From the UHGV virus genome UHGV-0069791: a stretch of DNA of 15,754 bases. One strand, given 5' to 3'. Under the pieces are notes generated by a model. The model was not told the DNA's origin. It saw only the letters and a program-made list of their open reading frames with translations, and made no database searches. Position numbers and translations under genes: made by a program. Source of the DNA: a virus. Below are positions 4,556 through 4,697 of the stretch, piece by piece (the stretch's first letter is position 1; every line of letters begins with the position of its first letter).

Positions 4556-4697
4556 ATCTGAATTTCACAGCGCATCTCACGCGCATATTAACGAGAGCCT
4601 TTCAGTAAGCGAGCCTGAGAAATGCCGTTATAGGTGGCGACCTCTCTCGGGCGGCTTTTCTGTGAGACAGGCTCACTTTCTAAAAGGTAAAGACGCT

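Follow-up and report, generated by a model that had tools for sequence, protein, structure and literature searches.

A conserved, pseudoknotted leader RNA upstream of rha and other accessory genes in phages of Enterobacterales

The DNA analyzed here, 15,754 nucleotides of the virus genome UHGV-0069791 (in the following "the window"), belongs to a lambdoid phage or prophage and spans its late region: a lysis cassette, which is closed by an intrinsic terminator, is followed by the gene rha and, further downstream, by genes for the terminase subunits and the portal protein (Table 1). The stretch between the terminator and the rha start codon, positions 4557-4691, is one copy of a structured RNA. 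The structure is pseudoknotted, conserved and strand-specific, and in other phages it is found upstream of the Shine-Dalgarno sequence and ATG of varied accessory genes. The original prediction had pointed to a 12-mer in this stretch that resembles the lambda cohesive-end site (cosN) and is bracketed by an imperfect inverted repeat; the sequence around the motif reads ...GCGAGCCTGAGAAATGCCGTTATAGGTGGCGACCTCTCTCGGGCGGCTTTTCTGTGAGACAGGCTCAC..., and both features are parts of the RNA structure.

The evidence for this structure comes from comparative analysis. A pattern scan of viral contigs returned at least 120 loci, and the loci listed contain 130 instances with 56 distinct cores in two size classes, a long class (cores of 75-81 nt) with an apical hairpin and a short class (60-62 nt) without it. 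A covariance model, R1, was built from 23 long-class sequences, including the window copy, and describes the nested helices only, i.e., the two pseudoknots (PK1 and PK2) were left out. In the window, R1 matches 4557-4691 far beyond chance (153.3 bits, E about 1e-30 to 1e-32, the window copy being a seed sequence), and no second copy was found in the window with filters off. There are 110 R1 matches among the viral-contig loci listed and 73 in genomes. Several divergent copies were missed by the pattern and found by R1 (L004:136-274, L080:11119-11255, L129:1825-1951, L090:818-952, L082:5966-6109, and L061:8113-8252), and these retain every helix with changed sequences (PK1 CUGACAU/AUGUCAG; PK2 CACAGAA/UUCUGUG and UGCAGAG/CUCUGCA).

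Seven helices, two of them pseudoknots, have covariation support. When the full structure including the pseudoknots is imposed on the alignment of the viral-contig loci listed, 94.3% of the cells are paired, compared to 85.5% in shuffles (0 of 500 reach the observed value) and 34-45% in slid controls. An independent alignment from species-representative bacterial genomes gives 93.0% (shuffles 84.7%, again 0 of 500; slid controls 32-46%). Double changes occur in 40 of the 46 pairs in the viral-contig alignment (15.3 in shuffles) and in 37 of 46 in the genome alignment. For PK1, 92% and 90.5% of the cells are paired in the two alignments, and all six pairs covary in the first; for PK2, the corresponding values are 83 and 85%, and the basal stem is paired in 96-98% of family cells. 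These numbers have to be read with the sampling in mind: the set consists of related sequences, aligned by a fit to the nested helices, and the collecting patterns fix CTTTCAG and the helix P2, which accounts for part of the invariance there. This collection bias does not affect the pseudoknots or the copies that only the model found.

Folding of single sequences cannot settle the strand, as the reverse strand folds well too (z = -4.8). The element is read as RNA from the + strand, which is supported by the excess of G.U over A.C combinations (303 to 161 overall, and 162 to 25 in the basal stem), by the asymmetry of the model scores (only about 25-28 bits with R1 on the reverse strand of the window versus 153 on the + strand), by the genomic context, and by the + strand reads of a P22 member of the family, the small RNA P22F (PMC13397905). 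The position of the element relative to its neighbors is the same as elsewhere in the family, with the terminator hairpin, the element, the Shine-Dalgarno sequence and the ATG in this order on one strand.

The RNA is predicted to fold into a small hairpin, P1, followed by a long composite hairpin, which consists of the basal (closing) stem, P2, P3 and an optional hairpin, P4. Two pseudoknots cross the main hairpin: PK1 pairs the P1 loop with the internal loop between P3 and P2, and in PK2 the 3' side of the apical loop is the partner of the linker. The arms of the inverted repeat in the original prediction (GCGAGCCTG, 4609-4617, and CAGGCTCAC, 4668-4676) are real, and they form the inner part of a longer repeat, 4598-4617/4668-4687, of 20 nt with 85% complementarity. 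Two more exact 6-nt complements, 4575-4580/4662-4667 (TCTCAC/GTGAGA in the DNA) and 4592-4597/4644-4649 (CGAGAG/CTCTCG), correspond to the pseudoknots. The suggestion of a regulatory stem-loop for rha, which had been offered as a fallback, was thus right in placing the inverted repeat in a regulatory RNA structure, but a single stem-loop understates a fold of seven helices.

Table 1. Genes, signals and RNA helices of the window. Positions refer to the 15,754-nt window.
Feature	Position	Strand	Description
Q antiterminator	68-448		
DNA methylase	1604-2656		
Holin	2661-2939		
DUF1327	2944-3294		
Lysozyme	3358-3891		
Rz	3873-4355		
Intrinsic terminator closing the lysis cassette	4530-4554	+	GC-rich hairpin 4530-4549 and T run; terminator scan
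Structured leader RNA, whole element	4557-4691	+	Covariance model R1; sole copy in the window
P1 hairpin	4570-4584	+	GCGC, loop AUCUCAC, GCGC; 99.5% of cells paired; 4/4 pairs with double changes (GCGU/ACGC, GCAU/GUGC)
PK1, 5' strand	4575-4580	+	UCUCAC, in the 7-nt P1 loop; exact complement of 4662-4667
PK2, 5' strand	4592-4597	+	CGAGAG, linker just 5' of the basal stem; exact complement of 4644-4649
Basal (closing) stem, 5' strand	4598-4609	+	CCUUUCAGUAAG, contains anti-Shine-Dalgarno CCUUU; inverted repeat, minimum free energy (MFE) folds
P2, 5' strand	4611-4617	+	GAGCCUG, in the left arm of the original repeat; pairs with 4668-4674
P3, 5' strand	4618-4627	+	AGAAAUGCCG; pairs with 4652-4661
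P4 apical hairpin	4632-4643	+	AGGU-GGCG-ACCU, the cosN-like motif; 4/4 pairs covary
PK2, 3' strand	4644-4649	+	CUCUCG, 3' side of the apical loop
P3, 3' strand	4652-4661	+	CGGCUUUUCU, holds the TTTTC of the original prediction; covaries with 4618-4627
PK1, 3' strand	4662-4667	+	GUGAGA, 6-nt asymmetric internal loop between P3 and P2
P2, 3' strand	4668-4674	+	CAGGCUC, in the right arm of the original repeat
Basal stem, 3' strand	4676-4687	+	CUUUCUAAAAGG, includes Shine-Dalgarno AAGG (4684-4687); inverted repeat, MFE folds, covariation counts
rha coding sequence, gene served by the leader	4698-5222	+	174 aa; Pfam Phage_pRha, E 2e-28
Non-coding DNA 3' of rha			About 800 nt
DUF1441-type small terminase	6034-6525		
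gpA-type large terminase	6525-8627		
Lambda-family portal	8764-10344		

The pseudoknots change sequence between phages with both partners matched. For PK1, the window pair UCUCAC/GUGAGA is replaced by UCGCACG/CGUGCGA, UCGCAUG/CAUGCGA, UCGUACG/CGUACGA, UUCACC/GGUGAA, UCCACC/GGUGGA or the CUGACAU pair given above, and the longest complement averages 6.1 nt for true partners versus 4.5 nt for mismatched partners. For PK2, CGAGAG/CUCUCG alternates with CCCGAG/CUCGGG, GAAAG/CUUUC, AAGAG/CUCUU, CGAUA/UAUCG, the two pairs of the divergent copies, and CCACCGA/UCGGUGG in P22. In P3, matched alternatives are AGAAA/UUUCU, GGCAA/UUGCC, GGGGA/UCCC and AGGAACGCCG/CGGCGUUCCU, and individual pairs reach 45-57 double changes in a set of 98 distinct sequences. 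P2 is nearly invariant, in part because the collection pattern required it; copies found only by the model keep it with other sequences (GCCUUUG/CAAAGGU in P22, and GAGCCA/UGGCUC). The divergent copy L080:11119-11255 has the basal stem swapped for CACAUAG/CUAUGUG. P4 varies as AUGGU-GGCG-ACCAU, AGGU-GCGG-ACCU, AGGU-GAGG-ACCU, AAGGU-AGCG-ACCUU, AGUC-GGCG-GACU and GGUA-GCGUU-UACC, and it is missing in 45-49% of 159 distinct members. A few unpaired bases are invariant: the C4603/A4682 mismatch in the basal stem, which is conserved in 96-97% of members, G4650-G4651, and A4675.

The closing helix contains the Shine-Dalgarno sequence of rha, 10 nt before the ATG at 4698: in MFE folds, CCUUU (4598-4602) pairs with AAAGG (4683-4687), and the ribosome-binding site is hence paired within the conserved structure. 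A coding function of the same stretch as an N-terminal extension of rha (open reading frame (ORF) 4455..5222) was rejected, because only 26% of 97 variants keep the frame open across the element and the indels are not multiples of three; the element is thus non-coding, and the longer ORF is an artefact. GenBank places the rha start codons of both P22 and phi80 within the RNA structure: in P22 (BK000583, L130:1526) it is a GTG in the apical hairpin, and in phi80 (JX871397, L001:2732) it precedes the ATG by 38 nt. Both annotations are probably incorrect, as homology and the open-frame statistics favor the ATG that follows the Shine-Dalgarno sequence as the true start. A promoter scan detected nothing sigma-70-like on the + strand from the lysis genes to rha, and in many family members the T run of the terminator abuts P1, which leaves no room for one. 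For these reasons, an independent promoter or small RNA gene was dropped as the main interpretation. Most simply, the RNA would be a segment of the late transcript that Q antiterminates, in agreement with the description of rha as a late-operon gene (PMC4936722).

An intrinsic terminator within the element, formed by GCCG...CGGC and UUUUCU (4624-4661), was considered and rejected as well: the U run forms the 3' side of P3 and covaries with 4618-4622. Indeed, it is not kept as U in other members (UUUCU, UUCCU, UUGCC, UCCC), and the terminator scan around the element makes a call only at 4530-4549 and none at 4624-4661. Since the strands of P3 covary, the U run, i.e., the TTTTC of the original prediction, is a helix strand and neither a terminator tail nor a cos feature.

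The structure has no counterpart among the Rfam families. In Rfam 15, the region 3800-6600 of the window gave no match at E<=1 except a spurious lncRNA, and at E<=10 the stretch 4500-4720 matched only generic hairpin (miRNA) or terminator look-alikes with 9-19 bits, compared to thresholds of 42-88. No model of C4, c4-2, c4-a1b1, isrK, sar, pistol, twister or the riboswitch classes matches the element, and ARAGORN detected no tRNA or tmRNA. In the literature on this motif, one report was found: sequencing of small RNAs during P22 infection revealed "P22F", an 89-nt RNA from the + strand, which was validated by reverse transcription PCR (Naaz et al., 2026; PMC13397905). Its 3' end lies 6 nt before the rha start, and no function was assigned to it (PMC13397905). 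The rha leader of P22, which is not a seed of the model, matches R1 with 56.1 bits (E 9e-12) and keeps P1, PK1 (CCGCA/UGCGG), PK2, P2, P3, P4 and the basal stem, in the absence of any BLAST similarity to the window copy. Judged by this match, P22F is a divergent member of the rha-leader family, and it occupies the same place between the lysis-cassette terminator and rha. As the P22 locus fits R1 and P22F accumulates, one family member accumulates in vivo. However, the report describes the 89-nt species only, and neither the family nor the pseudoknots nor the pairing of the Shine-Dalgarno sequence (PMC13397905). The family would give P22F a structural and evolutionary context. The 5' end of P22F follows directly on the anti-Shine-Dalgarno CUUUGG, where a continuous 12-bp helix has its foot, and this hints that the ends of P22F reflect processing.

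The element is abundant in phages of Enterobacterales, where it constitutes a structured RNA family without an Rfam entry. The 145 nt before the rha ATG (4556-4700) match 152 phage records at 81-100% identity, including phi80, HK639, Stx1- and Stx2-converting phages, and phages of Klebsiella, Enterobacter and Hafnia, as well as the P22-like podoviruses HK620 (100% identical), epsilon34, g341c, Sf101 and CUS-3. The P22-type subclass adds 75 records, for more than 200 phage records overall. Among 5426 complete E. coli genomes, 641 (about 12%) contain a near match, and nothing besides the rha gene is annotated at the element in these. About 60 species of Enterobacterales carry it (Escherichia, Salmonella, Klebsiella, Enterobacter, Citrobacter, Yersinia, Serratia, Pantoea, Erwinia, Rahnella, Buttiauxella and others), and in the genome set the family is confined to this order. 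Three matches of the genome scan, in Asticcacaulis, Methanocella and a deltaproteobacterial metagenome-assembled genome (MAG), have no R1 match and were discarded as chance pattern matches. MAG bins assigned to Cellvibrionaceae, Bacillota, Collinsella and Gammaproteobacteria (L144, L171, L176, L183, L196) contain copies identical or nearly identical to those of E. coli, which are likely mis-binned prophage contigs. The cryptic prophages DLP12 and Qin of E. coli K-12 have no copy, so that K-12 data sets are unusable for this RNA.

Homology between the phages begins near the terminator and in every case extends up to, but not beyond, the start codon of the gene that follows, whichever it is. Downstream of the element, 13 unrelated protein clusters are found, including Rha, KilA-N, ANT, T5orf172, HNH and a weak Phage_Tail_Tip match; in HK620, for example, a KilA-N gene (hkbK) follows, and elsewhere a GIY-YIG/T5orf172 protein. 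Upstream, a terminator-like hairpin and T run precede P1 by 5-25 nt in 125 of 164 distinct contexts (76%), and compensatory variants of the hairpin 4530-4549 are seen in homologs. In some phages, a second leader copy, often of the short class, stands before another accessory gene: phi80 L001:4221-4340 (upstream of PHI80_66), L004:136-274, L010:8502-8618 and L038:3252-3370. The second copy of phi80 fronts an N15 gp59-like protein near the phi80 cos. With such second copies, the units of terminator, leader and gene behave as portable cassettes. At eight short-class loci (L024, L033, L039, L041, L064, L067, L090, L119), paired TTATCCCC...GGATAA motifs and a TATAAA box lie about 30-90 nt upstream of the terminator, which could be a promoter or an operator.

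The feature that had drawn attention to this stretch, the 12-mer GGTGGCGACCTC, is present at 4633-4644, 1.2 kb upstream of the probable cos as had been stated and 54 nt upstream of the rha ATG. Its 11/12 match to GGCGGCGACCTC was upheld (0.06 such matches are expected per window, and 10 of 200 shuffles have at least one). However, GGCGGCGACCTC is the lambda end shifted by one base. Compared to the true 12-nt cohesive end of lambda, GGGCGGCGACCT, the match drops to 10/12, a level reached by chance in 151 of 200 shuffles, and in register with lambda bases 2-41 the similarity ends at the 12-mer. The TTTTC that was said to follow as in lambda is there, but at a spacing of 11 nt instead of the 5 nt in lambda. 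The resemblance to cosN is therefore marginal, and the 12-mer is the P4 hairpin plus one base.

The original prediction had read the motif mainly as a relic or duplicated cosN, which would imply that rha was inserted beside an ancestral cohesive-end site. Apart from the shifted match, this is favored by the gpA-type terminase of the window phage, which packages from cos, and by phi80, which uses the lambda end GGGCGGCGACCT and carries the same motif. However, in phi80 the leader is identical and the annotated cosQ and 12-nt sticky end lie 2.4 kb further downstream. The distribution contradicts a relic: the element is not restricted to cos phages but is present, in part identically, in HK620, epsilon34, Sf101, CUS-3 and P22, all five of which have P22-type terminases (genes 3 and 2 of HK620 are annotated as the subunits). 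P22-like phages package by a headful mechanism, i.e., without cos. Nor is the motif conserved, as GGTGGCGACCTC occurs in only 17 of the 73 genome copies and the covarying hairpin is missing in nearly half of the family. A cosN would be expected about 100-250 bp upstream of the small terminase gene with cosB repeats in between, but 4633-4644 lies 1.39 kb upstream of that ATG (6034), with rha between them and no cosB or cosQ context, and no related phage record is cut there. The record of mEp460_4F5, a phage with the terminase type of the window, has its last base at the equivalent of position 5842 and its first, in the sequence CCACGGGGCGGGAG, at 5843. This junction lies about 190 bp before the small terminase gene; the interval contains three TTTTTGCAT repeats (5876, 5905, 5938; span 5876-5946) and a site on the minus strand (5909-5921) that resembles the binding site of integration host factor (IHF). 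The real cos is thus probably at 5842/5843. Like lambda cosN, the window motif is a 12-mer rich in G+C and partly palindromic, and its phage is lambdoid and has a gpA-type terminase, but its misplacement by 1.4 kb from the terminase genes, its occurrence in pac phages and its covariation as an RNA hairpin set it apart. It is not a cos site and not a member of the lambda cosN group, the relic reading has next to no likelihood, and the other fallback of the original prediction, a chance match to lambda, fits better. As a lead to cos, the motif is false, and it says nothing on packaging or on how rha was acquired.

The interpretation that we consider the better-founded one, rather probable in view of the predicted fold, is that the element is a cis-acting leader of the late mRNA that would control the translation, and perhaps the processing, of rha. 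The segment 4557-4691 would be transcribed into the structured 5' leader of a late-operon mRNA. With the Shine-Dalgarno AAAGG paired to CCUUU in the closing helix, the folded leader would limit or gate translation initiation, in the window that of rha and elsewhere that of accessory genes such as KilA-N and ANT. The helix might be opened by a nuclease cut, a protein, a ligand or a trans-acting RNA, and the leader may also serve as a processing or stability module of the antiterminated late transcript. The proteins concerned can be harmful to phage or host. Such an RNA would explain the conserved non-coding stretch between the lysis genes and rha or kilA in mosaic phages, and would make the old view that rha expression must stay low, which goes back to the toxicity of Rha in IHF-deficient hosts, testable through defined helices.

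Several points weigh against this interpretation. The effect on translation is a prediction from the structure, and so is the coexistence of all seven helices in one fold. The lowest basal pairs, CUUU/AAAG, are almost invariant, so that covariation is thin at precisely the pairs that would occlude the ribosome-binding site, and a purine-rich Shine-Dalgarno sequence would be conserved anyway. The sequences compared are related phage modules, and part of them were collected with the pattern that fixes CTTTCAG and P2. Moreover, two pseudoknots exceed what simple occlusion of a Shine-Dalgarno sequence needs, which hints at a further partner or activity, and the ends of P22F suggest processing, which might either activate or destroy the message. 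A tentative and somewhat doubtful possibility is that the family represents a new regulatory RNA class rather than a passive damper of translation: either a switch responsive to a ligand or protein, or a self-processing RNA, which would gate harmful accessory genes (Rha, KilA-N, ANT) in late operons, or a module similar to c4 or IsrK with exchangeable loop "specificities", whose at least seven matched PK1 variants would let co-resident prophage copies talk to or ignore each other.

Known systems illustrate how far the likeness goes. In Gifsy-1 of Salmonella, IsrK (isrK-orf45-anrP) is a prophage RNA located just upstream of an ORF in an antirepressor-type operon; in its long transcript the ribosome-binding site is structurally masked, the leader region accumulates as a small RNA, and IsrK, which is transcribed from a promoter of its own up to its own terminator, targets the long isoform in trans. 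The window leader is likewise located upstream of an antirepressor-type gene with a ribosome-binding site predicted to be masked, but the isrK model of Rfam does not match it, and an own promoter and terminator and action in trans are features of IsrK. In the c4 system of P1 and P7 (icd-ant), two short complementary segments also lie on the same transcript upstream of an antirepressor gene, partners change in a matched way between phages, and one target overlaps the ribosome-binding region. The difference is that the window segments fit an intramolecular double pseudoknot, and that the Shine-Dalgarno sequence would be paired by a separate closing helix. In the manner of these two systems, the element could instead be processed into a small RNA that acts in trans, or form a cis/trans antisense module; the short complements (P1 loop and linker against the two internal loops) would then be specificity determinants between different molecules too. 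This is consistent with the two antiparallel complementarities with their many matched "specificities", with the presence of two or more copies in some phages (phi80, Stx2 phages, L010, L038), and with downstream genes that are often antirepressor-like (Rha, KilA-N, ANT), as in c4-ant and IsrK-anrP. Moreover, the P22 member accumulates as a discrete 89-nt RNA, for which IsrK has been suggested as an analogy (PMC13397905). Nevertheless, we regard this explanation as unlikely: the stretch from the structure to the ATG contains no terminator, a promoter was not found in the interval from the upstream terminator to P1, the Rfam models of C4, c4-a1b1 and isrK do not match, six base pairs are typical for an intramolecular pseudoknot, and copies in one genome share or differ in loop sequence without a rule.

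Leaders that sequester the Shine-Dalgarno sequence, such as translational riboswitches, resemble the element in having a structured 5' untranslated region, a closing helix of anti-Shine-Dalgarno and Shine-Dalgarno sequence 10 nt before the start, and stabilizing pseudoknots. A new riboswitch-like or self-cleaving RNA, with small-molecule binding or scission near CUUUCAG and the basal helix as expression platform, would account for a compact fold that fits two pseudoknots into about 130 nt and has a few invariant unpaired bases, for the Shine-Dalgarno sequence in the closing helix as in translational OFF switches, and for the 5' end of P22F exactly after the conserved CUUUGG. However, the leader matches no known aptamer class and no riboswitch or ribozyme model of Rfam, and it fronts unrelated genes without a common metabolic theme as a portable cassette of phage late operons. 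The RNA ends come from one small-RNA sequencing study and might be decay boundaries, and we consider this reading quite unlikely. There is little reason to favor a processive antitermination or anti-Rho RNA, similar to put of HK022 or EAR of Bacillus, that would allow readthrough of the terminators of accessory cassettes. EAR is a pseudoknotted antiterminator RNA, 76% of the copies come after an intrinsic terminator, and cassettes of terminator, element and gene can be tandem, but the element always abuts and pairs with the Shine-Dalgarno/ATG region, an association that antitermination would not require, Q already antiterminates late transcription, and no terminator lies between element and gene; this explanation is very improbable. 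Finally, the element might act as DNA, i.e., as an operator, an IHF site or a recombination "linker" at a mosaic boundary, since the mosaic junction is common to phages with different flanking genes, and work cited in PMC4936722 is said there to report that rha is regulated by IHF and that Rha is inhibitory in IHF-deficient hosts. A site similar to the IHF consensus (AATCATTCAGTTA, one mismatch) indeed occurs at 4704-4716, just inside the rha coding sequence. However, the window has about as many such sites as expected by chance and none is found inside the RNA structure, compensatory changes in seven helices, two of them crossing, are not expected for protein-binding DNA, and the excess of G.U over A.C and the strand-asymmetric model scores argue against it, leaving a DNA-level site an extremely improbable explanation.

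Two minor observations concern the sequences on either side of the leader and rha. An ORF of 50 aa at 4343-4495 overlaps the end of Rz, with its stop just 5' of the terminator, and corresponds by position to epsilon34 gp67 and Sf6 gene 65 ("conserved hypothetical protein"). Downstream of rha, the Rfam scan of 3800-6600 gave no match to the non-coding stretch 5230-5511 (core 5285-5438), which is 96% identical to nt 49-204 of another small RNA of P22, "P22G" (PMC13397905), and about 97% identical to sequences of HK97, HK022 and mEp235. By virtue of this sequence conservation, the stretch is a candidate for a second conserved RNA.

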